The notes under the pieces were generated by a model. That model was not told the DNA's origin and ran no database searches. It saw only the letters and a list, made by a program, of their open reading frames with translations. DNA of 64,000 nucleotides from Methanomassiliicoccaceae archaeon (GTDB lineage: Archaea; Thermoplasmatota; Thermoplasmata; Methanomassiliicoccales; Methanomethylophilaceae): the NCBI GenBank assembly GCA_034928305.1, contig JAYFOZ010000001.1, positions 173,255-237,254 of the forward strand. The letters run 5' to 3'. This document shows, piece after piece, positions 6,504 to 38,723 of this stretch (position 1 is its first letter; every line of letters begins with the position of its first letter). Both the position numbers and the translations under genes were made by a program.

Positions 6504-7297
6504 TGGACGCCTTTCAGTTCGTTAAGTCTTTTCTTCTTATCATCAGAACGCATCAATGTTTCTCCGACAAGCACCCCGTCCACCTTGGATGCTCGAAGCA
6601 TATCCACATCATGCGAATTGTTTATTCCGCTCTCGGCTATGAAAAGCACATCTTCCGGTACCATTTTTCTCAGCCTTATGCTGTTCTCGAGATCGACCGT
6701 GAAATCGCTCAAATTCCTATTATTTACGCCGATCATCCTCGCGCCCGCATCTAAGGCAGATGAGATATCATGTTCATCGTGTGCTTCTACCAGTGCGGAC
6801 AGTCCGAGATCATCGCAGATCCCTATGTATCTGTGAAGATCGTCGCTATTCGTGATCGAACATATCAGCAGCACCGCTGAAGCGCCCAGCGTCTTCGCCT
6901 CATAGATCATGTAGTCGTCAACCGTGAAATCCTTTCTCAGACAGGGTACCGATACGGTCCCGGCTATTTTCTTCAGATGTTCATTGTCACCCAAGAACCA
7001 TTTTGGTTCGGTCAATACAGATATGCATGACGCGCCGGCGGACTCGTATTCTCCAGCTATCCTTTCGAAAGGATAATCGGTTACTATCTTTCCTTTGGAC
7101 GGAGAAGCTCGTTTGCATTCGCATATGAAGGACATGTCATCGCTCGATAAGGCCTTCTCGAATGGGAATCCGGTATCACATTCCATAGACGATGCCGAGG
7201 CCCTCATTTCTTCGAAGGAGATGTGCTTTTTCGATTCTTTGACACGAACCTTGGCATATTCCGCTATCGTCTGTAGAATGTCCGTCATGTATCTCAC
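6500..7297 (-). CDS. trpC: indole-3-glycerol-phosphate synthase
   Basis: [22 protein letters not shown] and GVNNRNL motifs. Confidence 0.9.
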
Positions 7298-18632: not shown

Positions 18633-19054
18633 TTTTATCTGCTGAATATATGCCCCTCGTTAATTATATTATCGTCCGCGTGCGCGAAAAACGGGAATCC
18701 GCGACAAAACGGTCTGCAGAGCTGCAGCCTCTCGGCACCTATGCACGGTTTCGAGGTCGGACGTCTCTTCGCCGCAGGTCGGGGTCGGACGGCCTGCAGA
18801 GCAATATCTGGTAATTCAGGACCGCCGTACAGTGTTCATACTGTCCCATCGAAAATACCGGTGGCCGAACAACGCCCTGTCTCGTTTGTTCCGCCGGAGG
18901 CAAAGAATTTACTTTGCCATTCAAAGGTCCAGGCTGTTCAGGATCGCAGCTCGGTCGCAATGCCGCATTCTCTTGGAGAGGATAGGCCCCCTACCGGAAA
19001 GTACGCTCAGAGACGTTTGAGGTTTTAGGGAATGACCCAGTTCTTCAGTAGAGG

Positions 19055-19071
19055 ATGGATGATATATCCAA
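19055..19071. promoter_or_regulatory. 17-nt palindromic operator copy (ATGGAT-GATAT-ATCCAA) abutting a TATA-like AAATTATATA
   Basis: Lies 42 nt upstream of the NifH-like start at 19113. Same motif as at 24233, 24293, 24341, 32493, 32575 and 45847. Confidence 0.55.
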
Positions 19072-19112
19072 TAAATTATATAGGCTTCTGTCAATCTGGA
19101 TGCCGGCCGGAA

Positions 19113-21260
19113 ATGTATCAGATAGCATTCTACGGGAAAGGAGGAATAGGAAAGTCGACCATGGCCGCAAACATATCGGTCGCCCTAGCGGGCAAGGGAG
19201 CCAGGGTGATGCAGATAGGGTGCGACCCCAAGCACGACTCGACAAGACTTCTTCTCGGGGGGCGGGTCCAGACGACGGTACTGGACTACGTGCGTGAAGT
19301 ACCGGCAGGAAAGAGAAAGATCGAAGATGTGATGATGAAAGGCACATCCGGGATACTGTGCATCGAGGCGGGAGGTCCCGAACCAGGCATAGGATGCGCG
19401 GGGCGCGGTATACTGACGGCGTTTGATACGCTGAAGAAACTGGGCGCAGACGACTACGACGTCGAAGTGAAGATTTACGACGTCCTCGGGGATGTGGTGT
19501 GCGGTGGTTTTGCAGTCCCGCTGAGGGGAGAGTATGCCGACGGAATAGTGCTGGTCACATCCGGCGAGTTCATGTCGTTATACGCCGCCAACAACATAAT
19601 GAAGGGGCTGACCAACTTTGACACAGGCAAACCCAGATTGATAGGAATCATACTCAATTCGCGCGGAGTGGAGGGGGAAGAGGAAACCGTCAGGCGGTTC
19701 GCCGAAGCCGCGGGGACCAAGATAATAGCGGTCATCCCCCGCCATAGGCTGTTCTATGAGGCCGAATCATCCGGCCATACGGTCCGCGAGATGTTCCCGA
19801 GTTCAAAGTTATCAGAAACGATGGATTCAGTGGCACAGTACGTCATCGACGTTCGCGATGGGAAGAACCAGGCGTCGTTTTCCCATCCGCTCAACGACGA
19901 CCAGATGTCGGACCTTGCGGCAGGACGCGAAATACGCAGAGGAACATGCGGAGAAGCACTGCGACCCAGATGTACGACGTGCAATCCCAGGACTTCTATC
20001 AAAGAATCGAAGATAATGAGCTCTTGCGCCGCATACGGGGCCGCAGCAGCATATCTCAAAATGAACGACGTGGCCGTAGTCCTCCACGGGCCGCTGAGCT
20101 GCGCGTATCTCATGGACACGGCGCGCGCCAAAGCAGTTCTCGAACTTTATGCGGGCGGAATATATTCTACGGATCCGAACCACAATCTTAGGTGCACGAT
20201 GATGGACGACAGCTCCTCCATATTCGGAGGGGTCGGGAACCTCGAAAGGACCCTGAGAGATACAATTGGGGAGGGATACAGGAAAATCGCAGTGGTAACA
20301 ACGTGTATGCCCGGCATCATCGGCGATGACAGTCTGACGGTGATAAAAAAGGTGATCGGGGATAACCCCGGGGTCAGCATCCATTATGTCCCGGCAGATG
20401 GGGACGTCAACGGCGAATTCACAGACGGATTCATGATGGCCGTCGAAAAAATAACGGAGACCATGGACACCTCGTTGGAGAAGGAGCGGGGCACGGTGAA
20501 CATCATAGGTACGTCATTTTTCGATCTTCATTCACTCAGGAACGCGAAAGAGGTGGAAAGGTTATTCTCCGCTTTCGGCCTAAAAGAGAACTGCAGGTTT
20601 CTGGACGAGACATCTTCGGAAGCTGTGGCAGGCTTTTGCAGAGGTCACATAGATCTGATGGTCAACGACTCCGCCACAACGAGGGAAATGGCCTCTATAA
20701 TAGAATCGAAGACCGAGAGGGTGGCGCTGTCCGTGCCGTTGCCAGTCGGTCTCCACGACTATGTGGAGTGGGTTCGCCAGATAGGAAAGATGATGGATCT
20801 GGAAGAGGAAGCGGAAAGAGAGATCGAACGGGCAGAATCGGATCACGAGGAGTTCATAGAGGCGCACAGTCGCCATTTCAGAGGCAGAAAGGTCATCGTA
20901 ATGAACAGGACGTCGCAGAATATCGATTGGCTGATCGACATGCTGATCTGGTTAGGAGCGGAAATTTGCAGGGTGGGATGTGTTCCCAGCGCTCGCAAGT
21001 CCGGGTCGAGATCCGCATCCCGCCACTCGGACATCATAATGTCGGATTACGACACGGACGACCTCAGACGTGACCTGGCTAACATGGACCCAGACCTTAT
21101 CATCGGTGAATTCACCGGGCCTATAGGGAGCAGGTGCCGTATATCCAGGATCGGAAAGATAGGCATAGGCATTCTCCCGACCAAAGAGTACGTCGAGTAC
21201 CTGGAAAATATAATGAGGCTTCCCCGGGAGGAAGGTTGGAAGGAGGGAAGGAAAGTATGA
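19113..21260 (+). CDS. nitrogenase-superfamily fusion: NifH/BchL/CfbC-like ATPase domain + NifD/BchN-like 'component 1' domain
   Basis: MYQIAFYGKGGIGKST, CDPKHDSTR, GGPEPGIGCAGRGI and DVVCGGFAVPLR, then in the same frame SSCAAYGAA, LHGPLSCAY and TTCMPGIIGDD. The ORF-track start 19032 adds 27 non-homologous residues and is rejected. Confidence 0.8.
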   Translation: MYQIAFYGKGGIGKSTMAANISVALAGKGARVMQIGCDPKHDSTRLLLGGRVQTTVLDYVREVPAGKRKIEDVMMKGTSGILCIEAGGPEPGIGCAGRGILTAFDTLKKLGADDYDVEVKIYDVLGDVVCGGFAVPLRGEYADGIVLVTSGEFMSLYAANNIMKGLTNFDTGKPRLIGIILNSRGVEGEEETVRRFAEAAGTKIIAVIPRHRLFYEAESSGHTVREMFPSSKLSETMDSVAQYVIDVRDGKNQASFSHPLNDDQMSDLAAGREIRRGTCGEALRPRCTTCNPRTSIKESKIMSSCAAYGAAAAYLKMNDVAVVLHGPLSCAYLMDTARAKAVLELYAGGIYSTDPNHNLRCTMMDDSSSIFGGVGNLERTLRDTIGEGYRKIAVVTTCMPGIIGDDSLTVIKKVIGDNPGVSIHYVPADGDVNGEFTDGFMMAVEKITETMDTSLEKERGTVNIIGTSFFDLHSLRNAKEVERLFSAFGLKENCRFLDETSSEAVAGFCRGHIDLMVNDSATTREMASIIESKTERVALSVPLPVGLHDYVEWVRQIGKMMDLEEEAEREIERAESDHEEFIEAHSRHFRGRKVIVMNRTSQNIDWLIDMLIWLGAEICRVGCVPSARKSGSRSASRHSDIIMSDYDTDDLRRDLANMDPDLIIGEFTGPIGSRCRISRIGKIGIGILPTKEYVEYLENIMRLPREEGWKEGRKV

Positions 21261-22528
21261 GGACCCTGCCCGACGGTTTCAACGGTGCCATCATGGCGGT
21301 AGAGAGCATAACCGACGCCATAGCTTTCCTGCACGGCCCAGGAGGATGCAGGGTAAGGCACATGGTCCATTCGACAGCCGTCTTTCCCCGCGAGGACCCT
21401 GGAGACAAGGATGGGTACGACATACCATATTTCTACAGCTACCCGAGGGTGCCAGCAACATATCTCGACGAATATGATTACATAAACGGTGCGGCGTATA
21501 AGTTATCGGAAGGACTGCATATAGTTTCATCCAAGAAGCCGGCCCTCGTAGTGATCATCGATTCACCGGGCGCGGGGCTCATCGGCGATAATCACGAAAA
21601 GGCCGTGTGGGAGCTCGGACTTGAATCCAAGGTCGTATGCATGGACGAATCCCTCATATCTATGCCGTTCACCATTTGCTACGGCCACACGCTCAGAGCA
21701 GTAGTGGAGAAGCTCGGACCGGAAAGAGGCCGCCGGGAGAAGAATACGGTCAATATAATCGGCCTGACCATCATGGATAAGGACTGGAGGGCCGCCGCGG
21801 ACGAGCTGCGGGGGCTGGTCGAGTCCATGGGCCTGAAAGTAAAGTCCGTTCCCGGTGCTGGAGCTTCCACCTCGGAGCTCCGCGACTCCGTTAATGCGGA
21901 ATACAGCATCGTGGTGTGCCCGGAGGCGTGTGCCGGCCTGTCCGAGCTTTACGAATCATATGGGGTGAAAGTGGTGCGCTCGGATGCGGGCGCCCCCGTA
22001 GGATTCGATGCCACCGAGAGATGGATAACGTCGATAGCGGAGGCTACGGGCAGGGACCCGACGTCGGCGCTGGGGTCCGTCCGCAGGGCGAAGGAGAGAG
22101 TATATGAGAAATTTGTCGGTACGAAGTATAATTCGCTGCGCATAAAAGGAATGTCATTTTCCGCAGCCGGCACGGCATCGGTCATAAGGTCGCTGACAGA
22201 GTGGCTCTATCATTATCTGGCCATGGCGCCGGTCGCGGTATCGGTAGATCCCGGGGCCGATAAAGACGAGGTCGAGGCGCTTAAGGTATTTTTGGATTCG
22301 GCAGGATACCCCGAATCTTTTGGCCGGGAACCGAGAGAAGGTTCGGGCGCAGTCTTCTGCGAAGGCATAACCGCCTACACGATGCTATTGAACGGCGGGT
22401 GCAGGATCGGAGTGCCCATCGGATATTCCTCGATGGGCCTTGACGACGTGATTTCTCGCCCGGTGTACGGGGTACAGGGCGCGATGTACATACTGGATGA
22501 GATCCTGCACGGCGTAAGGGGAAATTGA
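21257..22528 (+). CDS. NifK/BchB-like 'nitrogenase component 1' subunit
   Basis: ATGA overlap with the upstream stop. AVESITDAIAFLHGPGGC and VVIIDSPGAGLIGDN motifs. 423 aa. Confidence 0.7.
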   Translation: MRTLPDGFNGAIMAVESITDAIAFLHGPGGCRVRHMVHSTAVFPREDPGDKDGYDIPYFYSYPRVPATYLDEYDYINGAAYKLSEGLHIVSSKKPALVVIIDSPGAGLIGDNHEKAVWELGLESKVVCMDESLISMPFTICYGHTLRAVVEKLGPERGRREKNTVNIIGLTIMDKDWRAAADELRGLVESMGLKVKSVPGAGASTSELRDSVNAEYSIVVCPEACAGLSELYESYGVKVVRSDAGAPVGFDATERWITSIAEATGRDPTSALGSVRRAKERVYEKFVGTKYNSLRIKGMSFSAAGTASVIRSLTEWLYHYLAMAPVAVSVDPGADKDEVEALKVFLDSAGYPESFGREPREGSGAVFCEGITAYTMLLNGGCRIGVPIGYSSMGLDDVISRPVYGVQGAMYILDEILHGVRGN

Positions 22529-22594: not shown

Positions 22595-23350
22595 TCAGAT
22601 CTTTCTCGTCTTCAGCAGATAGTAGTCCAAAGCGAAGAATGCCAGACTGAACGCGGCCAACACCATCAGCGAAATCCATGGGAAATCCAAATAGCCGGGT
22701 AGCGCCGCGGCCCTTATGCACTCGCTGGCATGGGTCAGCGGAAGGCAATACAGCACTCCCTGGAAAATCGGGGACAGAGAAGAAACCGAAAAGAACGTTC
22801 CGCACAGAAATGTCATCGGAAGTATGATCAGGCTGTTGAAGGTCGCGAGGCTCTGATGAGATTTGGCCAGCAGCGCCGCGGACATGCCGAGGAAAGAGAA
22901 GGCCAGGCAGGACAAGATCACGCACAGCGCAAATAACGGCGAAAGTACGAGTTCCGGCGCCAGAAACAACCCGAGGGCGTAAATCAGGACACAGCTCATC
23001 AATCCCCTGAATATCCCAAGCACAGATTTTCCGAAAATAATGGCGGGAAGGCTCAAAGGGCACATCATCATTTCGTCAAAACTCTTGTAGTAGAGCCTCT
23101 GGACGTTCATTCTTGTGGACGTCGACGAGAATGACGACGAGAGGGAAGAGAGTGCAACGATACCCGGTATTACGAACGCAACGTACGATACTCCGATATC
23201 GGTCGTCCCCGTCCTGAGCCCGTATCCGAACGCGATAAGATACAGCAAGGGGCTCATGACGCTCATAACCAGAATGTTCAGGAAATTGTGCTTGATGAAC
23301 ATGAGGTCTCCCCAGGCAACGTAATACGTCTGCTTAAGGAAGCTGATCAT
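22595..23350 (-). CDS. ABC-2 type transporter permease
   Basis: 251 aa, 6 TM segments, 4-nt overlap with the upstream ATPase. Confidence 0.75.
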   Translation of the reverse strand: MISFLKQTYYVAWGDLMFIKHNFLNILVMSVMSPLLYLIAFGYGLRTGTTDIGVSYVAFVIPGIVALSSLSSSFSSTSTRMNVQRLYYKSFDEMMMCPLSLPAIIFGKSVLGIFRGLMSCVLIYALGLFLAPELVLSPLFALCVILSCLAFSFLGMSAALLAKSHQSLATFNSLIILPMTFLCGTFFSVSSLSPIFQGVLYCLPLTHASECIRAAALPGYLDFPWISLMVLAAFSLAFFALDYYLLKTRKI

Positions 23351-24207
23351 TTCTGTGCCCCCACGCTCTTTCCGGTGAGTTCTACGAATACGTCCTCAAG
23401 GTTGATGTTCCTTATCAGTACATTCTCTTCGCTATCGAGGGATGAGACGAAAGCCTTGGCCTCGTCCCTGCTCCGGAAATACTTATACTGGGTCCTTTTT
23501 TCGGCCATGTACTCGACCGCCGTCGAACCCATGGCATCGCAGAGCTTTTTGGGCTCATCCAATGCTATTACTTTGCCCTGGTCTATGATTCCGACCCTGT
23601 CGCACAGAGCCTCCGCCTCTTCTATGTAGTGAGTGGTCAGGAAGATCGTCGTGCCCTTTCGGTTGAGGGATCTGACTACATCCCATAGGAGGCGCCTTGC
23701 GTTGATGTCGAGGCCGGACGTGGGCTCGTCCAGGAACAGGACCTTCGGTTCATGCAAGACGGCGCAGACTATAGCCACTCTTTTCTTCCAACCTCCGGAA
23801 AGCGAATCAACGGGCATTCCGAGATATTCTTTTAGACCGAAGTAGTCCGAGAGCTCCTTGATTTTTTCGTTTCTCTCTTTCTTCGGCATCATATGGTACA
23901 TTGCGTGGGAGACCATGTTCTCCATAACGGTAAGGTCCTTGTCAAGGGAGATCTGCTGCTGTATGACCCCCATCCGATTCTTTGCCTCTGTCGGGTCCCT
24001 CTTGATATCGAAACCATCGACTGTGATGGTACCAGAATCATATCCGGTCAGTGTGGCGATGCACCTTACCGTCGTCGTCTTTCCGGCGCCGTTGGGCCCC
24101 AGGAATCCGAATAGCTCTCCGTGGCGGATCCTCAGATTCAAATGATCTACAGCCGTTTTCTCCCCGAATTTTTTGACAAGATCGTCAATGATGATGATAT
24201 CATTCAT
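23347..24207 (-). CDS. ABC transporter ATP-binding protein (ABC-2/DrrA-like)
   Basis: Walker A GPNGAGKTT, signature LSGGWKKR, Walker B LFLDEPTSGLD. Confidence 0.9.
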   Translation of the reverse strand: MNDIIIIDDLVKKFGEKTAVDHLNLRIRHGELFGFLGPNGAGKTTTVRCIATLTGYDSGTITVDGFDIKRDPTEAKNRMGVIQQQISLDKDLTVMENMVSHAMYHMMPKKERNEKIKELSDYFGLKEYLGMPVDSLSGGWKKRVAIVCAVLHEPKVLFLDEPTSGLDINARRLLWDVVRSLNRKGTTIFLTTHYIEEAEALCDRVGIIDQGKVIALDEPKKLCDAMGSTAVEYMAEKRTQYKYFRSRDEAKAFVSSLDSEENVLIRNINLEDVFVELTGKSVGAQK

Positions 24208-24292: not shown

Positions 24293-24309
24293 TTGGATGT
24301 ATAATCCAT
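24293..24309. promoter_or_regulatory. operator copy TTGGAT-GTATA-ATCCAT
   Basis: Same intergenic region. The central GTATA is identical to the copy at 32493. Confidence 0.5.
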
Positions 24310-24340
24310 CATTATTAAATACAATTTACATTATGTCGTA

Positions 24341-24357
24341 TTGGATGATACATCCAA
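24341..24357. promoter_or_regulatory. operator copy TTGGAT-GATAC-ATCCAA (perfect half-sites)
   Basis: Lies 9 nt upstream of ATG 24366 and downstream of the TATA-like ATTATTAAATA (24311-21). Confidence 0.55.
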
Positions 24358-24365
24358 GTGATCGA

Positions 24366-25694
24366 ATGGATATGAAAATCAAGATAATCACAATAGTCGC
24401 CGCGACGGCCGTCGTGGTCGGGGCGATTGGAGCGTATGCACTTCTCAACGACGCGGACGACGACAGCGTCTATGTCGATGCATCACTGGCGATAATGGGG
24501 AATGCCAATGAAGATTCTAAGATCGACCAGGACGACCTTGACATTATTGAAGAAATAATCAGTGGCGAGACGGACCCCGCCGACCACCCATTGGCCGACG
24601 CGAACAACGACGGAGACGTCGACCAGGAAGACGCGGACCTTCTTCGCGACATGATCGACCATAAATCCGGCATAACGATAAACGTGGTCTGTTCCAATGC
24701 CGACGGGACCCCGTATGTACAGGATATAACATATCCGCTCAGAAGCACGGTTGTCGTTGGGACGAACCTTCTCTCTACATGCATCCAGGTAGGCGCGGCA
24801 GACTATATCGTCGGTTACACAAAGACAAATTACGGTGTCGCCCACGCACCCGTGATAGATAACGCGACGTGCATCGGAGGGTCAATCTTCGATCTGAACA
24901 CTGACACCTCAATAACAAACTTCCAGAATCTAGACGCACAAAAGGGGATTGATGCAGTGATTACGATGCCCTCAGTTTCATATCTCAAGACGTCTGCGGC
25001 GTACATCTCCGGCGCGGGGATACCCATCCTCAGGATTGATTCCTCGGACGGAATGGATTCTGTCGGCGGAGCGCTCACAATCGGATACATCTACGGAAGC
25101 GAGACCGAGAAAACCTCTTACGAATTCGCCGAGCTCAGCTATGCGGTGCTGGAAGAAATCACAGAAAGAGTGAGTGGATTGGAAGAATCGGAGAAGAAGA
25201 CCTTCATGGCAATCACAATGGGATACTATATCAGCCAGACCGACTCCGCGTATACAGGGGTTTGCGAGTACGCAGGCGGAAGCACGGTGACGACGCTGGA
25301 GGGCACTGGTTCGGTCAAGATAAACGACGGCGACGAATATTATCTCAACTGGAGCCCCGACTACATAATCAGCTTCAGGACGCTGGATTATTCGATTGAC
25401 TACACCGATATCTCAAGCAACAGCACGAAGACCCCGCAGGAAACATGGGACCAGTATTCCGGTTATTTCGACATGATGGGAGAGTCGTATGAAAACCTGG
25501 TGTACATCAACACCAGCATGCCTGTGACTTGCAGGATGGCATACATCGCCGAGATATTCTACCCAGACCTCTTTGAAGAGGGGTACGGGGACAGCGTGCA
25601 CCAGCAGTTTGTGGACAATTATATGGGGTATCTCGGTGACTTCGATGTCACCAAGGACATGACCACGATGATAACCTATGCGGATGTGTCATAA
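24366..25694 (+). CDS. membrane-anchored substrate-binding protein of a type-II ABC importer (Fe-siderophore/B12/heme class) with an N-terminal dockerin-like module
   Basis: TM anchor KIKIITIVAATAVVVGAIGAYALL. Two Ca-binding-type repeats: NANEDSKIDQDDLDIIEEII and DANNDGDVDQEDADLLRDMI. The remainder resembles Peripla_BP_2. Start chosen at MDMKIK. Confidence 0.65.
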   Translation: MDMKIKIITIVAATAVVVGAIGAYALLNDADDDSVYVDASLAIMGNANEDSKIDQDDLDIIEEIISGETDPADHPLADANNDGDVDQEDADLLRDMIDHKSGITINVVCSNADGTPYVQDITYPLRSTVVVGTNLLSTCIQVGAADYIVGYTKTNYGVAHAPVIDNATCIGGSIFDLNTDTSITNFQNLDAQKGIDAVITMPSVSYLKTSAAYISGAGIPILRIDSSDGMDSVGGALTIGYIYGSETEKTSYEFAELSYAVLEEITERVSGLEESEKKTFMAITMGYYISQTDSAYTGVCEYAGGSTVTTLEGTGSVKINDGDEYYLNWSPDYIISFRTLDYSIDYTDISSNSTKTPQETWDQYSGYFDMMGESYENLVYINTSMPVTCRMAYIAEIFYPDLFEEGYGDSVHQQFVDNYMGYLGDFDVTKDMTTMITYADVS

Positions 25695-25731
25695 ATGGGA
25701 GTATTCCCCCTCTTTTTTTGAGAGTGATCAC

Positions 25732-26529
25732 ATGGAGATGAAGGCCGTCGATCTGGGTTTCAGGTATTATGATAATGTGATATTGAGCGATGTCAACGTA
25801 GACCTCGAAGGCAACAAAATGGTGTCGATAATAGGTCCCAACGGAGTCGGAAAGACCACGCTCATTCACTGCTTCAGTAAGATACTGAAGCCCACAGACG
25901 GACGGGTGTATGTAAACGGAAAAGATATCGAAGATTACAAACTGAAGGAACTGGCTAAAATAATCGCATACGTCCCGTGCACTTCGCTGGACACATTCCC
26001 CCTGACCGTAACGGACACGGTTCTTTTGGGAAGAAATCCCCACAGTAAATGGGGGTCCCTGAACAGGGACCTGGAGAAGGTGCAGGAGACATTGCGGCTG
26101 CTGGGGATCGAGGATCTTGCCATGAGACCTTTCAACGAGCTTTCGGCAGGGCAACGTCAAAAAGTGGTGCTCGCCAGAGGGCTCGTGCAAGAGTCCCAGA
26201 TATTGCTTCTGGACGAACCCACGGCGAACCTGGACATCAAACACCAAATGGGCGTTACCAGATTGCTGCGTGACTACTCGCACAAGCAGGGCATAATGGT
26301 GATAATGATCAGCCATGACCTCAACATCGCTGCAAAGTATTCTGACGAAGTCATCATGTTGTACGGGGGGAACATATTCGCCAAGGGGTCGCCGAAGGAC
26401 ACAATCAATCCGGAGAACATAGAGGCTGTGTACGGTGTCAGGTCGAAAACCGTCATCAATAACGGTCGGCCGCATGTGATCCTCGAAGATGACGACGACC
26501 CGAAAACAAACATCTGCGCGGGTGCTTGA
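25732..26529 (+). CDS. ABC importer ATPase (FepC/BtuD-like)
   Basis: GPNGVGKTT, LSAGQRQKVVLARGL, LLLDEPTANLD, and the H-loop ISHDL. Confidence 0.9.
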   Translation: MEMKAVDLGFRYYDNVILSDVNVDLEGNKMVSIIGPNGVGKTTLIHCFSKILKPTDGRVYVNGKDIEDYKLKELAKIIAYVPCTSLDTFPLTVTDTVLLGRNPHSKWGSLNRDLEKVQETLRLLGIEDLAMRPFNELSAGQRQKVVLARGLVQESQILLLDEPTANLDIKHQMGVTRLLRDYSHKQGIMVIMISHDLNIAAKYSDEVIMLYGGNIFAKGSPKDTINPENIEAVYGVRSKTVINNGRPHVILEDDDDPKTNICAGA

Positions 26530-27607
26530 ATTGCCTGACGAAAAGGGGCTCGTCGAGGCATACCGTCACAATCTGTTCCTCAAAGTCGTTTTCATAATAT
26601 CATGCTTCGCCGTGCTTATGCTGGTCATAGGTTACTCCCTGGCGGTCGGCCAGGGAATCACCGTGTCAGAGTCGTACGAGATAATGATGAAACATCTTGC
26701 CGGAGAGATATATCCGCTCAGGTCCGAAATGTGGTGGAAGGACTACTTCATCTGGAACAATGTGATGCCTCGCGTGGTCGTCGGAATAATAGGCGGCTGC
26801 GGTCTGGCTGCATGTGGAGCCGTCATGCAGAGCATCATGAGCAATCCTCTGGCCGATCCCTACACCACGGGGATATCTTCAGGTGCCTGCTTCGGTGCGG
26901 TGGCATCCCTGATAGCAGGAGTCTCGTTCGCATCGCTGGGCAGCGGATACACCACCGTGACCAATGCTTTCATAGGCGCATTGGTTCCGACTATGATCGT
27001 CATACTGATAAGCAGGCGCATAAACGCGACCCCCGCAACACTGATTCTGATAGGGGTCGCGATATCTTACTTCTTCAATGCGGCCGTGACTCTCATGATG
27101 GTTACTGCGACCGCCGAGGATCTGCAGGCCGCATATCTCTGGCAGGTCGGAACCCTGACAGGCATGACATGGAGCAGCGTACCGCTGATGCTGGTCATAA
27201 CGGCGGCGGGTTCCGCCGTGGCGATGCTGTTTTCCAAAAACATGAATCTGCTCACGATGGGAGAGAACAGCGCAAAGAGCATGGGTCTGGACGTTGAACA
27301 GTTCAGAATGCTGTGCTTGATTATGGTGGCGGTAATGACGGCTGCCATCGTGAGTTTCACAGGCATACTGGGTTTTGTAGGTCTCATATCCCCTCACATC
27401 ACCAGGCTGGTGATAGGTTCGGACAACAGGGTGGTCATTCCCGCTTCCATGATTGTCGGCGCGCTGATGCTGGTCTCATGCGATCTCATCTCGCGTTTGG
27501 TGTCAAATATTACAGACATCCCCGTTGGCGTGGTCCTGTCCTTGCTGTGCAGCCCGATATTCCTGCTGATGGTGACCGGATTAAAGAGAGGGAGGGGCGT
27601 GTACTGA
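26489..27607 (+). CDS. FecCD/BtuC-family permease, subunit 1
   Basis: 372 aa, about 10 TM segments. Motifs RVVVGIIGGCGLAACGAVMQ and NPLADPYTTGISSGA. Confidence 0.85.
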   Translation: MTTTRKQTSARVLELPDEKGLVEAYRHNLFLKVVFIISCFAVLMLVIGYSLAVGQGITVSESYEIMMKHLAGEIYPLRSEMWWKDYFIWNNVMPRVVVGIIGGCGLAACGAVMQSIMSNPLADPYTTGISSGACFGAVASLIAGVSFASLGSGYTTVTNAFIGALVPTMIVILISRRINATPATLILIGVAISYFFNAAVTLMMVTATAEDLQAAYLWQVGTLTGMTWSSVPLMLVITAAGSAVAMLFSKNMNLLTMGENSAKSMGLDVEQFRMLCLIMVAVMTAAIVSFTGILGFVGLISPHITRLVIGSDNRVVIPASMIVGALMLVSCDLISRLVSNITDIPVGVVLSLLCSPIFLLMVTGLKRGRGVY

Positions 27608-28674
27608 TGGTTCATGAGCAGATCTATGGATTCGTGGAGAAGTATTGCCACGAGAATCACAAGAAAATCGTTTTTACAATAACCTGTCTGATACTAGCCA
27701 TATTTGTCTTTTTCCTGACAATCTCCATCGGAAAATACGAGCTGTCTTTCGGCGAGTCGTATAGGATATTTGTCGACAATCTTTTCGGAAACGGTCAGGC
27801 TACAACAGAGAACATGATCATCTGGGAATACCGTGTCCCCCGAGCCCTCATGGGCATATTCGTCGGGGCATCGCTGGCAGTGGGCGGCGCGGTCATGCAG
27901 AACCTGATGATGAACCCGCTTGCGGAACCGTATACCATGGGCATTTCGTCCGGTGCCTTCCTCGGTGCCGTGCTGTCGATAACATGCGGTATATCCATCA
28001 TCCCGTTCCTCGGCGGAGACGACGCCACGGTATTGAACGCATTCATCCTTTCGCTCGCGCCGGTATTTCTGATCGTAGCAATATCCAAATTCAGAAAGAC
28101 CACGCCTACGACCATGATACTGTGCGGGGTGGCCATAATGTACGCATTCAGTTCGGTATCGACGATGCTGATGGTCTTGGCGGACCCTGAGCATCTCTCG
28201 GACGCATATTCGTGGCGCGTCGGAGTCCTCGGTAAGGCCTCGTGGGACAGCCTGATGCTGGTAACTCCCTCGATGACGATCCTCATTGCGATATTGTTAC
28301 TCTTCGCGGGAAAGATCAATACGATGTCCATAGGAGACAAGGGAGCAATCTCGCTGGGCACAGACCCATACCGGACCAGGCTCGTCTGCCTGGTCCTGGT
28401 CGCGTTGCTTACGGCATTCGCTGTCAGCTTCACCGGCACGATCGGATTCGTCGGCCTCGTGGCCCCACATATAGTCAGGACGTTCATTGGATCGAACAAC
28501 ACGTATCTTCTGCCGGCATGTGCGGGATTCGGAGGCATATTCCTCCTTGTGATGGACTCAATAGCCAAAGTGATAAGCGAGACCGGGCTACCCGTAGGTG
28601 TCATATCCGCGATGGTCGGGGGCCCCCTCTTCATATACATACTGGTACAGAGGAAGCGCAGGATATGGTACTGA
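27607..28674 (+). CDS. FecCD/BtuC-family permease, subunit 2
   Basis: TGATG overlap start (MVHEQIYG..). Motifs RALMGIFVGASLAVGGAVMQ and NPLAEPYTMGISSGA. The ORF-track start 27313 is rejected. Confidence 0.85.
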   Translation: MVHEQIYGFVEKYCHENHKKIVFTITCLILAIFVFFLTISIGKYELSFGESYRIFVDNLFGNGQATTENMIIWEYRVPRALMGIFVGASLAVGGAVMQNLMMNPLAEPYTMGISSGAFLGAVLSITCGISIIPFLGGDDATVLNAFILSLAPVFLIVAISKFRKTTPTTMILCGVAIMYAFSSVSTMLMVLADPEHLSDAYSWRVGVLGKASWDSLMLVTPSMTILIAILLLFAGKINTMSIGDKGAISLGTDPYRTRLVCLVLVALLTAFAVSFTGTIGFVGLVAPHIVRTFIGSNNTYLLPACAGFGGIFLLVMDSIAKVISETGLPVGVISAMVGGPLFIYILVQRKRRIWY

Positions 28675-28740: not shown

Positions 28741-31700
28741 TCAGCGGTCGTTGACCTCTTCGATACGCTCTTCCAGGCCCAGGAATATTTCCTTCATTTT
28801 CTCGAGTGTTTTCGGGTCGGCGTCCCACATACCCCTGTCGCAGGCCTCCATGAGGCGGTTCATCATGTCCATCATGGCGTGAGGATTTTCGTCCTTCATC
28901 CATTCGCGCGTATCGTCGTCGAACAGATACTTCTCGGCAAGCTTCTCGTACATCCAGTCATCTACTGTTTCGGAAGTGGCGTCCCATCCGAACATGTATT
29001 CAGTAAGGTTGGCTACCTCTGCAACCCCCCTGTAACCGTGCCGTTTCAACCCCTCTATGAATTTCGGATTTAGCACTTTGCTCCTGAAAACGAACTGAAG
29101 CTCTTCTCTGGTGCTTCTCAACCTAACCTTGTCGGGATTCGAACCGTCGCCGATCAAAGATATCGCGTCCTTTTTGCCGTATGCTCTCACAAAAGAGTTG
29201 AGCCCTCCGAGATACCCGTACACATCATCCATGTCCAGCACGTCGATCTCCCTGTCCGGCATATTCTTCACGGTCACGCCGACCTTGCCGAACCTCTTGA
29301 CGAACTGGTCCCTCATGCTCTCTCCGGTCATGCCGCGCCCGTAAGCATAGCTCCCCCAGGTGATGTAGATGTCAGCAAGGTCCTGCACGGTCTTCCAATC
29401 GCCAGTTTCCACGGCGTGGTTAACGCCAGGGCCATACCCTCCCGGCGGGCAGCCGAAAATGCGCACAAGGCCCTCCTTTTTGACCTGTTCCGCCGGCAGT
29501 CCCTTCTCTATTCCCTCTACGATATCTCTGCGCAGGTTCGCCGCTAGGTAGTTTTCTTCTTCGGACTCGTCCAGGCCGGCCGCCATTTTTACTGCGTCGT
29601 CTATCAGGTCGATAAGGTTAGGGAAAGTATCCCTGAACAATCCCGTGATGCGGACGGTCACGTCTATGCGTGGTCTCCCCAGCTCAGACAGGGGAACGGG
29701 CTCCAGCCCGACGACCTGCCCGCCAACATTGGACCACACGGGCCTTATGCCCATCAGCCATAGTATATAAGCGACGTCGTCGCCGTTGGTCTTCATGGTA
29801 TCGGTCGCCCATATGATGAAACCGACCTCGCGGGGATAGTGCCCCGTTTCGTCAATATAGCGTTCGACCATCTGGTCGGCCATCTTTTTACCGATCTCCC
29901 AAGAGGAAGGCGGAGGGACGATGTCCGGATCGATGCCGTAATAATTCCTGCCCATCGGAAGTATATGGGCGTTCCCCCTGGTTGGGGCTCCAGAAGGGCC
30001 CGGGAGGACGTAACCTCCGTTACACCCATGGATAAGATTGTCCATTTCGTCAGTCATCCTCATGATGTTCCTTGCCAGGGAATCGCAGATATAGGCTATC
30101 GAAGACCCGAAGCCAGGTGACATGCCTCCGGCCGCCTCTTCCGCAAGTCTCATGCAGCTGTCCTTTTCATAATCAGCGCATCTCATTGCGGTCAGCAGGT
30201 CAAGCAGGTCTTTTTCCAGAGAATCGATAACAACGGAGTTCAGCTCGCCCTCGCGGACCTCGGATGGATTGTCGAGAAGGACATCCATATTGTATCCCCG
30301 TACCTCTGCAAAAGAATCTCTGAGCGAGGGGACGTCTCCGTTTTTCAATCTCATGATGGAATATATCATCTCGTCGAAACGGTCTCCTTCCGGGGCCCTC
30401 CCCAGTATATGGAGCCCGTCCCGGATCAACGCATCTCTGATATCCGTAAGATATGCGTGCAGATCGTCGAGGCGGCCTTCGAATTCCTCCGCAGAAATGT
30501 TTTCGGAAATATCCAGGTCCCCAAACATTTTGGCTTCGCGGACGCCGTTCAAAACACGCTCTACAAGCGCCATTCTCTTTCCGTCGCTGGAATTCCTCGC
30601 TTTGAAGTATTCCTGCAGAGCGTTATCAATCGCGGACAACTCGTCGTACGAGCCCGCCCGAGCCATCGCAGGGCACATGTGCCCTATAAGCACGGCCTCA
30701 GAACGCCTCTTGCACTGAATTCCTTCTCCAGGATCGTCGATGATGTATGGATAGATGTGCGGGATCCCGTCGAGCACGATGTCCGGAAAGCATTTCGAAG
30801 ACAATCCGACACTCTTGCCAGGGAGCCACTCCAGAGTTCCGTGCGTCCCCATATGAAAGACGATGTCCGTTCCAAAGTCGAACTTGAGCCATCTGTAAAA
30901 CATCAGATATTGATGGGGCATCGGCACCACGGGATCATGATAAACAGACTCCATCTGGTTGGCCCAAGATCTCAGGGGCTGATAACCGATGAATATGTTG
31001 CCGTTCAGCAGGCCGGGGATAACGAATTTGCCGTCTTCGACGCATATAGTTCCGGGAGGCTTTCCCCAATTTTCTTCCATCAGCCGTCTGTTGAACTCGG
31101 ACAGTTCCGAGTAGTACCGCCTATATTCCCTCAGGTCGGCCATGTCTGCAGCCTTTTCCCTCACTCTTTCGGGGGAAGACCATTCAAGGTCGTTCGTGAT
31201 ATTGTCCAAAATCTCATCGATAAGGGCCCTTCCGTTCAGGGGCACGTGATTCACGGTATAGCCCTGCCTGTCGAATCTTATGAGCATGTCGTTCACACTT
31301 TCGATGGTGTCGAGGCCCGCAGCGTTCCCTATGCGCCCCGATTCCGGACGGGATTGATACATCAGAATTGCAACCTTACGCTCGGAGGCTGGTTTCATGG
31401 ACAGTTTGGCCCAGCATTTTACTGCGTTGGAAAGATGCTCTATCCTGTCCTCTACCGGAGAATACCTCTTCGTTCCGCCCAGGCATCCCTCGTTGCTACC
31501 GATCGGCACGGTGATGATCTGACCGTCGACCTCCGGCCAGACCACGCTCATCTTCAGTTCGCCGTTGCTCAGTCCGGAAGCGCTCTCTTCGTAATCTGAA
31601 AAGTGGCCGCCCACCGTCATGGCCTGTATGACCGGGACGTCCGTCAGGTAATGATAGAAGTTCTGTTCATCGGGAGTGTAGATGCCCGTGCAGTCTCTGG

Positions 31701-32481
31701 AGTTATTGAGCTGTGAGAACGGGGTTGCCATTATAATTGCGTTCACCCTGCACTTTTTTCCGTCCATAAGATATTTTTCAACCACCGAAAGAGTGCCCCC
31801 GCTCCCCTCGGAGCTGCTGACCCTCGTGCTGAAGAAAACCGGGATGACGTTGACCTCTATTGATTCAAGCTTTCTGATGAGCATATCGATATGCTCCTGA
31901 TTGTTGTATATCCACAGATTAGATGTGTACAGTATCCCGACGGTAGGACGGCCGGGGACCAGATGTTCCAGATAATCCTTCAGGTCCACGTCTCTGGAAT
32001 AATCCGGATGATATATGCCGTCCTCTCTGTTTTTAATCGGTTCCGGGACGGCCCCATCGCCGGTAAGCTTGTTGTTCAGCCATTGCAGGATGCCCTTGTC
32101 GTTCTCTCTGCCCCTGTTTCCGATATATTCCCCCAACAGTTTGAAATCTTCATCGGAGCCCTTGAACAAATCGCGATACATGAGGCGCACTTCTACGTTC
32201 CCGGCATAGGACATGACATAGCCGGGGCATTCTCTGAGCACATTTTCAAATTGGGCGAATCTCTTCATCCGTGACGGTTCGGCCATGGATCTAATTATTG
32301 TCAGATCTGCAACTTTGGACCTGCGTACAAGTTCCTGGTACAACAGCGGATCATCGTCCACATCTTCCCCGTTAACGCAGAACAGTTCTATGTCCCATTT
32401 TCTCTCCAGGGATATTTCCCTTGCGGGCTCTTCCATATTGTGGGCGTCCGAACTCTGAATTGATATATAAACGACTTTCAT
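28741..32481 (-). CDS. cobN: CobN/ChlH/BchH-family large chelatase subunit
   Basis: 1246 aa. Length and architecture fit the class I chelatase large subunit (FHMGTHGTLEWLPGK, GNAHILPMGRNYY and similar). Divergent from the chlI/chlD-like genes. Confidence 0.85.
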   Translation of the reverse strand: MKVVYISIQSSDAHNMEEPAREISLERKWDIELFCVNGEDVDDDPLLYQELVRRSKVADLTIIRSMAEPSRMKRFAQFENVLRECPGYVMSYAGNVEVRLMYRDLFKGSDEDFKLLGEYIGNRGRENDKGILQWLNNKLTGDGAVPEPIKNREDGIYHPDYSRDVDLKDYLEHLVPGRPTVGILYTSNLWIYNNQEHIDMLIRKLESIEVNVIPVFFSTRVSSSEGSGGTLSVVEKYLMDGKKCRVNAIIMATPFSQLNNSRDCTGIYTPDEQNFYHYLTDVPVIQAMTVGGHFSDYEESASGLSNGELKMSVVWPEVDGQIITVPIGSNEGCLGGTKRYSPVEDRIEHLSNAVKCWAKLSMKPASERKVAILMYQSRPESGRIGNAAGLDTIESVNDMLIRFDRQGYTVNHVPLNGRALIDEILDNITNDLEWSSPERVREKAADMADLREYRRYYSELSEFNRRLMEENWGKPPGTICVEDGKFVIPGLLNGNIFIGYQPLRSWANQMESVYHDPVVPMPHQYLMFYRWLKFDFGTDIVFHMGTHGTLEWLPGKSVGLSSKCFPDIVLDGIPHIYPYIIDDPGEGIQCKRRSEAVLIGHMCPAMARAGSYDELSAIDNALQEYFKARNSSDGKRMALVERVLNGVREAKMFGDLDISENISAEEFEGRLDDLHAYLTDIRDALIRDGLHILGRAPEGDRFDEMIYSIMRLKNGDVPSLRDSFAEVRGYNMDVLLDNPSEVREGELNSVVIDSLEKDLLDLLTAMRCADYEKDSCMRLAEEAAGGMSPGFGSSIAYICDSLARNIMRMTDEMDNLIHGCNGGYVLPGPSGAPTRGNAHILPMGRNYYGIDPDIVPPPSSWEIGKKMADQMVERYIDETGHYPREVGFIIWATDTMKTNGDDVAYILWLMGIRPVWSNVGGQVVGLEPVPLSELGRPRIDVTVRITGLFRDTFPNLIDLIDDAVKMAAGLDESEEENYLAANLRRDIVEGIEKGLPAEQVKKEGLVRIFGCPPGGYGPGVNHAVETGDWKTVQDLADIYITWGSYAYGRGMTGESMRDQFVKRFGKVGVTVKNMPDREIDVLDMDDVYGYLGGLNSFVRAYGKKDAISLIGDGSNPDKVRLRSTREELQFVFRSKVLNPKFIEGLKRHGYRGVAEVANLTEYMFGWDATSETVDDWMYEKLAEKYLFDDDTREWMKDENPHAMMDMMNRLMEACDRGMWDADPKTLEKMKEIFLGLEERIEEVNDR

Positions 32482-32591: not shown

Positions 32592-32607
32592 CCAGTTGGG
32601 AATTATC

Positions 32608-33633
32608 ATGGACAGATTACTTTTCCCGTTCGTCTCGATCGTAGGTCAAAAAGAAATGAAAAAAGCACTGCTGCTCAACGTTGTGGACCCGAGCATCGGA
32701 GGCGTACTCATAAAGGGTGAAAAGGGAACGGCGAAATCGACGGCCGTCAGATCGCTTTCGCAGATCCTTCCCTGGCGTATGTCGGCGGAGGGATGCGCGT
32801 TCAACTGCGACCCTTCGTTGCCCGGCAGGCTGTGCCCCTACTGCAAAGAGAAGATCCTTTCAGGAAAGGACCTGAGGTCCGTAAATGTCAGAATGAGGGT
32901 TGTGGAACTCCCTCTGAGCGCCACGGAGGATCGAGTCTCGGGCACTCTGGATATCGAACACATCCTCAAGACGGGGGAAAGGAAGTTCGATCCCGGAGTA
33001 CTTGCACAGGCCAACGGGAATGTGCTCTATATAGACGAGGTGAACCTTCTGGACGACCACATCGTAGATCTATTGCTCGATTCAGCGGCAATGGGAGTCA
33101 ATTATGTGGAAAGAGAAGGGGTCTCCTTCTCTCATCCTTCTAGATTTATTCTGGTTGGTACGATGAATCCGGAGGAGGGGGACCTCAGACCGCAGCTTTT
33201 GGACAGGTTCGGGTTGTCCGTCGAAGTAAAAGGGGACAGAGACACCGACGAACGCATGGAGGTCGTCCGAAGAAGGCTTGAGTTCGACACAAACCCGGAA
33301 AAATATACTGAAAAATACGGGGCAGAGTCGGAACAGCTGACGTCCAGGCTGTCAAAGGCCCGGGAAATCCTTCCGGACGTTTCGGTGGACGACGATGTTC
33401 TGAGAGCGATAGTGAACATGACGATAAACCTGGGCATCGATGGCCACAGGGCAGATATCACAATGGTTAAAGCGAGCAAGGCCAACGCTGCCATGGACGG
33501 GAGGGTCCGCGTAACCAAAGAGGACGTCAGGGAGGCGGCCCCTCTGGCACTTTCTCATCGTATGCGGCGGCGCCCGTTCGAGGAAGAAGCATTCGACAAA
33601 GAGGAACTCGACAGATGTATGCAGACTATATGA
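32608..33633 (+). CDS. chlI: ChlI/BchI-like AAA+ chelatase subunit
   Basis: FPFVSIVGQKEMKKALLLNVVDPSIGGVLIKGEKGTAKST, Walker B LYIDEVNLLDDHIVD, GTMNPEEGDLRPQLLDRFG. Confidence 0.9.
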   Translation: MDRLLFPFVSIVGQKEMKKALLLNVVDPSIGGVLIKGEKGTAKSTAVRSLSQILPWRMSAEGCAFNCDPSLPGRLCPYCKEKILSGKDLRSVNVRMRVVELPLSATEDRVSGTLDIEHILKTGERKFDPGVLAQANGNVLYIDEVNLLDDHIVDLLLDSAAMGVNYVEREGVSFSHPSRFILVGTMNPEEGDLRPQLLDRFGLSVEVKGDRDTDERMEVVRRRLEFDTNPEKYTEKYGAESEQLTSRLSKAREILPDVSVDDDVLRAIVNMTINLGIDGHRADITMVKASKANAAMDGRVRVTKEDVREAAPLALSHRMRRRPFEEEAFDKEELDRCMQTI

Positions 33634-37227: not shown

Positions 37228-37231
37228 CGAG

Positions 37232-37675: not shown

Positions 37676-37739
37676 AAGAGCCAGACAGCAAAATTTAGCT
37701 TTAAAATATCGAATGTTTCAGATCGGAGAAGGACAAAAA

Positions 37740-38672: not shown

Positions 38673-38723
38673 AAAAGTAATTACTTGGATCAAACTAAAA
38701 AAATGAAAATGAGAGGTATAAAA

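Follow-up and report, generated by a model that had tools for sequence, protein, structure and literature searches.

We analysed a stretch of 64,000 nucleotides from a Methanomassiliicoccaceae archaeon (GenBank assembly GCA_034928305.1, contig JAYFOZ010000001.1, positions 173,255 to 237,254 of the forward strand), here called the window; coordinates are those of the window unless a comparison locus, numbered with the prefix L, is named. Two overlapping genes at 19113-22528 encode a reductase related to nitrogenase. In the first, a NifH-type ATPase domain (H) and an alpha-type 'nitrogenase component 1' domain (D) form one polypeptide, referred to below as HD; the second encodes a beta-type component-1 partner (K). 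The locus belongs to the nitrogenase superfamily, as it combines a NifH-family ATPase carrying two bridging cysteines with component-1 (Oxidored_nitro) proteins, and it is an uncharacterised, conserved variant of the nitrogenase-like (NFL) reductases.

The fused gene is a single uninterrupted open reading frame (ORF; 19032-21260, forward strand), the product of which has 715 residues when counted from Met 19113 (19113-21260). Met 19113 is most likely the real start, because related proteins have 712-720 residues and because a TATA-like box, AAATTATATA, can be read from the sequence at 19074-19083 on the same strand, about 30 nt 5' of the ATG. This box is a candidate archaeal promoter and would imply a leaderless or short-leader mRNA; a search of Rfam at E-values up to 10 gave no regulatory RNA 5' of the fused gene. 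Pfam places both domains in the one chain, Fer4_NifH (PF00142) at residues 3-269 (E = 2e-86) and Oxidored_nitro (PF00148) at residues 305-666 (E = 9e-55), and all matches to these two models in the fusion and in its K-like partner exceed the gathering scores. An earlier note on this DNA, made from the letters and a list of ORFs, had described an in-frame fusion with a NifH/BchL/CfbC-type ATPase part and a component-1 part, followed by a K-like partner starting in an ATGA overlap; the ORF, all of the quoted motifs, both Pfam domains and the K start bear this out.

The H domain (residues 1-270; 19113-19922, forward strand) is a NifH-type P-loop ATPase. Its P-loop, GKGGIGKS, lies at residues 8-15 and its switch I, CDPKHDSTR, at residues 37-45, and Cys95 (GIGCAGRG, nt 19395-19397) and Cys130 (DVVCGGFA, nt 19500-19502) are the predicted ligands of a subunit-bridging [4Fe-4S] cluster. 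The domain scores 236 bits to NifH against 151 to BchL by phmmer, and its AlphaFold2 model matches NifH structures with a TM-score of 0.9 and a root-mean-square deviation of 1.6-2.4 A. A linker (residues 271-303; 19923-20021, forward strand) that varies in length and sequence across the family joins it to the D domain; the span from a conserved PL(T/N)D motif to the first cysteine of D is 32-93 residues, with insertions and deletions, and residues 279-303 have an AlphaFold2 per-residue confidence (pLDDT) below 50. Cysteines occur within this linker at Cys279 (19947-19949) and, as a CxxC, at Cys287 and Cys290 (19971-19982). The CxxC is near-invariant in relatives with at least 47% identity, which make up the window's subfamily, and is absent from remoter members of the family; some subfamily members have CxxCxxC, with up to four cysteines in the linker. 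The CxxC could be an additional site for a metal or an Fe-S cluster, by which two chains are held to each other.

The D domain, with the stop codon, occupies 20022-21260 on the forward strand (residues 304-715; Oxidored_nitro). Its predicted cluster ligands are Cys305 (SSCAAYGAA, nt 20025-20027), Cys330 (LHGPLSCAY, nt 20100-20102) and Cys398 (TTCMPGIIGDD, nt 20304-20306), which in an alignment to VnfD are the equivalents of Cys62, Cys88 and Cys154 of NifD. In the same alignment the position of NifD Cys275 is taken by Asp519, and none of 69 family members has a cysteine in this column. AlphaFold2 predicts two confident domains joined by a disordered linker (pTM 0.59), in a single-chain model that informs on the domains only and not on the arrangement of H against D or on a (HD)2K2 assembly.

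The K-like gene (21257-22528, forward strand) encodes 423 residues with an Oxidored_nitro match at E = 8e-39. It begins at 21257 within GTATGAGG and, judging from this ATGA overlap, is translationally coupled to the fusion. Cys31 of K (FLHGPGGC, nt 21347-21349) is at the position of NifK Cys95 and BchB Asp36, and Pro104, in IDSPGAGLIGDN, stands where NifK has Cys153; the earlier note had correctly read K as lacking this cysteine of the xxCxxxxIGDD-type motif. A further residue, Asp6 (21272-21274), lies exactly 25 residues before Cys31, at the position of NifK Cys70. Of the K-like proteins encoded beside fused genes, all 39 compared have Cys31 and all 34 compared have Asp6, and both residues are invariant in nine diverse members; from its position, Asp6 could be a fifth or alternative cluster ligand. 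Another cysteine of K, Cys382 (22400-22402), is kept in 39 of 41 sequences of the archaeal subset and not in bacterial members. The pairing of the two genes is itself conserved: HD is directly followed by an N/K-like gene at more than 40 related loci, and at most fused loci with downstream flank the K-like gene lies within 310 nt, the distance being about 570 nt at L075 and the gene being absent at L002.

Four of the six P-cluster cysteine positions are thus occupied, three on D and one on K. At the level of sequence, an interface of 3 + 1 cysteines implies one inter-subunit [4Fe-4S] cluster and the absence of P-, M- and L-clusters, and it is because only these four are found that we read the site as a single [4Fe-4S] rather than as a P-cluster/FeMo-co arrangement. 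The earlier note had proposed the same simple cluster for this one locus, and the pattern is conserved across the family.

We found the same single-chain architecture in hundreds of independent assemblies. A protein-cluster search spanning 5.8 billion proteins, clustered at 90% identity, returned more than 110 clusters of proteins of 700-740 residues, all with both Pfam domains, which are 47-99% identical to the window protein across 95-100% of the query. An exhaustive search with the D part alone gave 548 relatives; most of the best 150 of these have 690-770 residues, with the D part beginning near residue 290-345 and identities down to 23%. An N-terminal NifH domain is present in 69 of the D-part relatives, and two NifH domains are present in one. 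The complete genome of methanogenic archaeon ISO4-G1 carries two copies of the fusion. As more than 110 clusters and 68 divergent representatives share this architecture across independent assemblies, an assembly artefact, a missed stop codon or a frameshift, which the earlier note had considered, is ruled out.

Conservation was assessed in 69 fused proteins, comprising the window protein and 68 divergent representatives at no more than 50% identity. The P-loop, switch I, Cys95 and Cys130 of the H domain are invariant in all 69, as are Cys330 and Cys398 of the D domain; Cys305 is present in 55. This indicates purifying selection on a working ATPase and on the Fe-S sites, and we are highly confident that a fused NFL reductase with simple clusters is real. 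Its hosts are Methanomassiliicoccales, other methanogens and Deltaproteobacteria, and several genomes have at least two divergent HD paralogues (ISO4-G1, L001 and L002; one metagenome-assembled genome (MAG), L005 and L036). Of the 120 loci picked out by a degenerate DNA pattern, most were true nif clusters and about a dozen were family members.

Several loci depart from the common plan. The second ISO4-G1 copy (L002, 10001-12145) is an HD paralogue without K, directly followed 3' by a Peripla_BP_2-FecCD-ATPase set and preceded on the opposite strand by ChlI and ChlD. At L075 (10001-13246) a protein of 1081 residues has two NifH domains followed by a component-1 domain (an H-H-D triple fusion), and a free PQQ-propeller protein is encoded near it. 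Tandem pairs of NifH-like genes stand beside D-like and K-like genes in Desulfobacterales (L042, L045, L046 and L068), being 5' of them only in L045. In the Desulfobacterales MAG at L042, a protein of 276 residues (5822-6652) with a NifB-like N-terminus (HPCF...ARVHLPVAPxC) is encoded upstream of the D-like, K-like, H and H' genes, which raises the possibility of a more complex cluster in this related clade. Finally, an archaeal-type cluster of HD, K and an ABC-2 exporter occurs on contigs labelled Firmicutes CAG:194, Dialister hominis, Prevotella hominis and Lachnospiraceae (L015, L017, L018 and L038), with 58-59% identity to the window in HD and 70% in CobN (present in L015 and L017); these labels most likely reflect binning contamination in the genome records.

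The fusion is not new as an observation, having been mentioned in passing in 2012, 2014 and 2024. Dos Santos et al. mentioned, as data not shown, a class of fused NifH-NifE-like proteins with a NifN-like partner and removed the fused sequences from their tree (PMC3464626); Borrel et al. (2014) listed a 'fused nifH/nifE' of Ca. Methanomassiliicoccus intestinalis in one table (PMC4153887); and a 2024 mSystems survey of archaeal fusions included a NifH-NifD/E fusion of Methanomassiliicoccales as fusion cluster 443 (PMC11237513). The class of Dos Santos et al. has an identical architecture and gene order and a matching taxonomic range, and the window locus is a member of it. These papers also noted the co-location with ABC transporters, and gave no phylogeny, ligand analysis or function. 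Fusions go unmentioned in a 2026 review of NFL enzymes in Chemical Reviews, which calls most group IV and VI functions unknown (PMC13474568), and our literature search found no functional study of the fusion. The architecture, which the earlier note had called unusual, is so relative to characterised enzymes; it is nevertheless widespread and was already in the literature.

Placement of the family rests on profile-to-PDB comparison and on the scores of curated hidden Markov models, each NCBIfam model being judged against its own cut-off. The H part scores 318 bits to CfbC (NF033200; cut-off 402), 308 to NifH (394), 190 to BchL (345) and 192 to BchX (331). The D part scores 28-29 bits to CfbD (TIGR03282; cut-off 268), 47 to NifD (654), 67 to NifE (505) and 33 to BchN (324), and the K part 66 to BchB (490). 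The D parts of 16 diverse family members are likewise far under all curated cut-offs, with a best CfbD E-value of 1e-12. At profile level, the D family is nearest to NifE (3e-62 to 2e-49), then to NifD (1e-50), MarD (3e-45; 9fmg, methylthio-alkane reductase) and VnfD, and stands at 2e-19 to BchN. The K family is nearest to MarK (9d9u_C, 6e-33), then to NifEN (8e-27) and BchB (2e-25). The earlier note's label 'NifD/BchN-like' for the D part therefore holds in its first half, NifE/NifD/MarD-like being the better description (3e-62 to 3e-45), and fails in its second.

On these scores the locus is neither nitrogenase nor CfbCD nor DPOR/COR. Nitrogenase proper (Nif/Vnf/Anf) is rejected on the absent Cys275 ligand, the 4/6 P-cluster cysteines, scores under the cut-offs and the lack of nifB/E/N nearby; the ORFs of at least 150 residues scanned in the window include no nifB/E/N, radical-SAM, cfb or cbi gene, in accordance with what the earlier note had said of nifB/E/N. 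For dark-operative protochlorophyllide oxidoreductase (DPOR) and chlorophyllide oxidoreductase (COR), every Bch model is far under its cut-off. A variant CfbCD, the F430 reductive cyclase, is rejected on the CfbC and CfbD scores (H 318 against 402 bits, D 28 against 268) and on the presence of a distinct K partner; neither cfbB nor a murF-like gene, with which cfbCD is clustered, is among the scanned ORFs of the window. Since Methanomassiliicoccales are reported to carry a separate nflD-murF-like-nifH-like (cfb) cluster (Borrel et al., PMC4153887), the fusion is also not a lone CfbCD variant, the simpler explanation that the earlier note had kept in view.

The nearness of the D profile to NifE raises the question of a NifEN-like scaffold or maturase, in which D/K would be a platform for the assembly of a metallocluster or metal cofactor and the fused H would be a NifH-like insertase. 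'NifEH' is indeed the annotators' name for the fused proteins, and the D-domain profile is closest to NifE of all those compared (E = 3e-62 to 2e-49). We nevertheless regard a scaffold as very improbable: there is no nifB or radical-SAM partner in the window, the Cys275-equivalent is absent and only four interface cysteines are conserved, no nitrogenase or other client enzyme is encoded nearby, and the neighbourhood is related to tetrapyrroles and not to cluster biogenesis.

Downstream of K in the window, and convergent with it, lies an ABC-2 type exporter (22595-24207, reverse strand; permease 22595-23350, ATPase 23347-24207; Pfam ABC2_membrane and ABC_tran), which NCBIfam models describe as DrrA/DrrB/NodIJ-like. 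It is followed on the forward strand by a FecCD/BtuCD-type ATP-binding cassette (ABC) importer at 24297-28674 (Pfam ABC_tran, and FecCD twice), made up of a binding protein (24297-25694), an ATPase (25678-26529) and two permeases (26489-27607 and 27613-28674). The binding protein, of 465 residues, has an N-terminal membrane anchor and no Peripla_BP_2 match, and its residues 65-119 form a dockerin/EF-hand-like segment with a weak dockerin match. Next come CobN, the large subunit of a class I (ATP-dependent) chelatase, at 28741-32481 on the reverse strand (CobN-Mg_chel, 1199 bits; TIGR02257 cobaltochelatase CobN, 916 bits, cut-off 822), and its AAA+/VWA motor subunits at 32596-35510 on the forward strand, ChlI-like (32596-33633) and ChlD-like (33615-35510) by Pfam and NCBIfam. 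CobN/ChlI/ChlD and the FecCD importer, all within 14 kb, are the only corrinoid-type genes near the reductase in the window.

The nearest public relative of the window is the Methanomassiliicoccales MAG UBA72 (L003), which is syntenic at 82-100% DNA identity. The segment 24300-29100, comprising the importer cassette and the 3' end of cobN, is about 100% identical to UBA72, the flanks on either side being 82-87% identical. The pattern suggests that two lineages exchanged this DNA horizontally or recombined very recently, or else that the assembly or bin is chimeric. A second FecCD-type importer lies at 46751-51817, 20 kb from the first, and includes a permease of 958 residues fused to an N-terminal PQQ-like beta-propeller.

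Beyond the chelatase genes, at 36031-40043, genes for a cysteine desulfurase-like (Aminotran_5), a cysteine synthase-like (PALP) and an O-acetylhomoserine sulfhydrylase-like protein follow one another. Genes of this kind would suit a Mar/Isr-type enzyme that cleaves C-S bonds in organosulfur compounds for cysteine and methionine synthesis, all the more since group IV NFL genes are often linked to sulfur genes (PMC3464626; PMC13474568) and since MarD and MarK are among the nearest solved relatives of D and K. The sulfur genes are, however, 13.5-17.5 kb away, past the transporter and chelatase genes, and are found in the window only: no CysK-, MetY- or NifS-type family is among the Pfam annotations of the loci retrieved by protein look-up, and the tblastn panels used elsewhere had no sulfur-metabolism queries. 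Methylthio-alkane reductase (MAR) moreover has a P-cluster and an L-like cluster with a Cys275 ligand, whereas here Cys275 is absent and only 4/6 P-cluster cysteines are present. The enzyme accordingly does not fit MAR or ISR, a sulfur chemistry of that type is highly unlikely, and the link to the sulfur genes, at least 13.5 kb from the reductase, is probably coincidental.

To place the window genes in context, we compared the surroundings of the family members. In Methanomassiliicoccales, a convergent ABC-2 exporter nearly always follows HD-K, and a FecCD-type importer and CobN are very often close by. Where identity is at least 52% and the flank is long enough, almost every locus has an ABC-2 permease gene 1.3-2.8 kb from the fusion. 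CobN occurs within 10 kb of the fusion at nine loci besides the window, and it is the direct neighbour at L192 and L197. Operon-level links are stronger evidence than proximity in the window and recur in unrelated lineages. The reductase genes are arranged with importer genes at L032 (binding protein-ATPase-HD-K-FecCD-FecCD) and L075 (Peripla_BP_2-FecCD-FecCD and the triple fusion), and with chelatase genes at L069 (ChlI-ChlD-HD-K), L197 (HD-K-ChlI-ChlD-CobN) and L192 (HD-K, with CobN 58 nt away). At L072 the order is CbiC-ABC ATPase-ABC-2-HD-K, in which the ABC ATPase, ABC-2, HD and K genes are co-directional with a 9-nt gap, and CbiK is convergent. ChlI/ChlD are operonic with or adjacent to family members also at L002, L010, L045 and L076.

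Two bacterial loci connect the fused genes to corrinoid metabolism most directly. At L076, from Desulfococcaceae, the proteins match those of the window at full length (HD 34% identity, E = 2e-133; K 34%, E = 4e-76). A same-strand string opens there with a cobalamin riboswitch (RF00174, 43 bits) and continues with a TonB receptor, a CobA/BtuR adenosyltransferase (211 bits, cut-off 168), a TIM-barrel protein, a BtuF-like Peripla_BP_2 protein, FecCD, HD, K and a radical-SAM protein; ChlD, ChlI and CbiZ lie upstream of the string and CbiK downstream. At L080, a CobB/CbiA amidase gene, which scores under the CfbB cut-off, shares 4 nt with the fused gene; next after the fusion come K and a PduO-type adenosyltransferase, and a riboswitch-controlled TonB/BtuF/FecCD operon is divergent from this operon.

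A similar association is seen in a separate, unfused NFL clade of Firmicutes, with operons of the form H-D-K-BtuF-like-FecCD-ATPase. All seven loci tested have a cobalamin riboswitch upstream on the same strand (63-114 bits), directly 5' of the NifH-like gene in five and 5' of intervening transporter genes in L048 and L049. The seven (L048, L049, L051, L053, L057, L058 and L065) are from Propionispora, Desulfosporosinus, Clostridium, Thermincola, Aminipila and Eubacterium callanderi. These operons were rejected as direct relatives, as their D proteins have no pairwise match to the D part of the window protein.

From this gene neighbourhood, from which its substrate is inferred, the fused reductase is probably tied to B12/corrinoid or cobalt-tetrapyrrole metabolism. 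The comparative context supports the earlier note's suggestion of a tetrapyrrole substrate and sharpens it to a corrinoid or cobalt tetrapyrrole. As far as the literature searched shows, the gene-context link to corrinoid metabolism is new: our searches gave no paper that connects NFL proteins with cobamides or B12 riboswitches, and none that describes the riboswitch-linked operons of Firmicutes.

The overall explanation that we favour, with about even chances of being right, is an ATP-driven NFL reductase acting on a cobalt tetrapyrrole, with a tethered H and a D/K core. For docking and electron transfer we draw on the conserved residues and on the precedent of NifH, DPOR and CfbCD, and for the substrate on gene context. 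Two HD chains would pair through their H domains, which would share one [4Fe-4S] cluster held by Cys95 and Cys130 of each. ATP binding and hydrolysis at the P-loop and switches would drive docking of this H2 unit onto the D/K pair, and the flexible linker of about 30 residues would allow it to dock and undock without release. One low-potential electron per cycle would then pass to the inter-subunit [4Fe-4S] (D Cys305, Cys330 and Cys398 with K Cys31) and on to a cobalt tetrapyrrole, presumably a corrinoid, bound where D and K meet. Supplying or handling the same molecule would be the part of the neighbouring CobN/ChlI/ChlD chelatase, BtuFCD-type importer and ABC-2 exporter.

The best-fitting step would be one in which the cobalt of cob(II)yrinic acid a,c-diamide, or of salvaged corrinoids, goes from Co(II) to Co(I), enabling adenosylation. 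We propose this step because the family's neighbours include CobB/CbiA for amidation, CobN-ChlID for cobalt insertion and CobA/PduO for adenosylation, so that Co(II) reduction is the slot left between them; salvaged corrinoids likewise need Co(II) reduction before CobA and CbiZ, which would explain the links to importers and riboswitches. In aerobes the flavoprotein CobR reduces Co(II) between cobalt insertion and adenosylation; no enzyme dedicated to this reduction in the anaerobic route is named in a recent review (PMC7242693). A donor of single electrons at very low potential, driven by ATP and with a D/K pocket of tetrapyrrole size, would suit this slot. The assignment of this specific role, Co(II) to Co(I) corrinoid reduction before adenosylation, is tentative, and we advance with the same reserve the idea that anaerobic B12 synthesis and salvage have in this family their long-missing dedicated corrin reductase.

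Stoichiometry bears on the mechanism. With a single H in each D/K unit, two chains would have to pair their H domains, giving at most one H2 per two D/K; alternatively, D might pair with D, as in CfbD, a K-less paralogue being present in ISO4-G1. The H-H-D triple fusion and the tandem H and H' genes indicate that two H per catalytic unit are also used in the family.

A number of observations count against the cobalt-centred role and call for caution. Neither a cbi gene nor an adenosyltransferase nor a riboswitch was found in the window itself, and importer proximity is weak evidence there, because two FecCD sets occur within its 64 kb. A riboswitch search at 21 further loci of the family or its relatives, of which many are archaeal or lie on short contigs, gave none, and the Firmicutes operons serve as an analogy only, since their D proteins have no detectable pairwise similarity to that of the window. 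The single H per D/K unit differs from the two of nitrogenase, and the K-less paralogue at L002 and the triple fusion at L075 show that the family is not uniform. The substrate of a CobN-type chelatase in strictly anaerobic archaea is puzzling. A one-electron, metal-centred reduction has no obvious need for a D/K scaffold, and the characterised NFL enzymes of tetrapyrroles that we know of (DPOR, COR and CfbCD) all reduce the macrocycle instead.

Ring reduction of a metallated tetrapyrrole, as in CfbCD and DPOR, is the main rival, ahead of metal release, a scaffold and Mar-like sulfur chemistry, which are less likely. Such an enzyme would place electrons and protons onto a C=C bond of a Co- or Ni-containing tetrapyrrole a,c-diamide supplied by CobN-ChlID, and so make or remodel a hydrogenated cofactor, for instance a modified F430-like or corrinoid-like molecule, leaving the metal unreduced. 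The 3 + 1 cysteine set fits the logic of DPOR and COR, the overlap of CbiA with HD at L080 mirrors the order of F430 synthesis (CfbB, then CfbCD), class I chelatase genes are operonic at L069 and L197, and the paralogues within single genomes (L001/L002 and L005/L036) could mean different substrates. Corrinoid synthesis, on the other hand, has no known unexplained ring-reduction step, and the adenosyltransferase and CbiZ neighbours imply none; family members in non-methanogenic bacteria behind B12 riboswitches are at odds with an F430-type product there; and the L080 amidase is CobB/CbiA by score. We therefore consider ring reduction rather unlikely, if still the strongest competitor.

The importer links also admit a reductive release of metal, in which an imported inert chelate (a metallophore, heme or an unusable corrinoid) would be labilised to yield free Co, Fe or Ni, the spent ligand then leaving through the ABC-2 exporter. 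Reductase genes lie within importer operons at L032, L075 and L076, the ABC-2 exporter is tightly associated, the adjacent chelatases require free metal, and the Firmicutes binding protein resembles the Ni-(His)2-binding CeuE, the molybdate-binding HI_1472, BtuF and heme binders; Dos Santos et al. moreover proposed metal transport coupled to cofactor assembly (PMC3464626). However, the superfamily has no known reductase of this kind, the CbiA, adenosyltransferase and CbiZ neighbours indicate an intact corrinoid as substrate, and corrinoid uptake is the usual target of B12 riboswitches. Metal release is in our view improbable, more so than ring reduction.

Whichever chemistry applies, the architecture is informative. 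In nitrogenase the Fe protein binds and leaves once per electron, and a natural, ancient and widespread H-D fusion offers a ready test of whether this dissociation is needed; a tethered Fe protein, if it works as proposed, would show superfamily turnover without dissociation of the components. If the corrinoid link is true, the family would supply a step of the anaerobic B12 pathway and of salvage for which no dedicated Co(II) reductase is known, and the CobN-ChlID chelatases of strict anaerobes, so far puzzling, would gain a role. The hosts include Methanomethylophilaceae, methyl-reducing methanogens of the human and animal gut with an energy metabolism based on corrinoid methyltransferases, which have several paralogues of the HD-K system beside many BtuCD-type importers.

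Among known systems, CobR and the RACE/RamA-type activators are functional analogues only, with no sequence relationship: they reduce Co(II) to Co(I) on a corrinoid, in an ATP-driven manner in the case of RACE. CobR is a flavoprotein (PMC7242693). The RACE enzymes, ATPases of the ASKHA type, have protein-bound corrinoids as their substrates. The group VI NFL of Elusimicrobia, for which a role in tetrapyrrole cofactor synthesis has been proposed (PMC13474568), shares with the fused family the lack of nifB and of the Cys275 ligand, no more than 4/6 P-cluster cysteines and an occurrence with or without K; group VI lacks the His442 ligand as well. Among the reference proteins compared, an Elusimicrobia subunit (L044) is the best pairwise match to the D part of the window protein (38 bits) and to many family members; group VI proteins are unfused, and the similarity is low, by pairwise scores to one Elusimicrobia locus.

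DPOR (BchLNB) and COR (BchXYZ), of group V, are heteromeric alpha/beta enzymes with an inter-subunit [4Fe-4S] on three alpha cysteines and one beta residue, a pattern that the fused family matches at the sequence level. The beta ligand falls at HGPxG(C/D), being Asp36 in BchB and Cys31 in the K of the window, and a class I chelatase is a partner in both cases (BchHID there, CobN-ChlID here), with a tetrapyrrole substrate that for the fused family is putative. They differ in that their reductase is a free L2 or X2 dimer where it is fused here, and at profile level they stand at 2e-19 (BchN) and 2e-21 to 2e-25 (BchB).

CfbCD likewise combines a NifH-type ATPase with a component-1 protein bearing a single simple [4Fe-4S], and its substrate is the product of a CbiA-family a,c-diamide synthase, as that of the fused family may be. 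Unlike the fused enzyme, which has a distinct K and scores far under the CfbC and CfbD cut-offs, CfbD is homomeric and has no K; the canonical cfbCD is found elsewhere in Methanomassiliicoccales (PMC4153887), and the fused family extends to non-methanogenic bacteria. CfbC has been reported to stay bound to CfbD in a persistent complex (PMC13474568), with which a tethered H agrees well, and a covalent fusion would make this association permanent.

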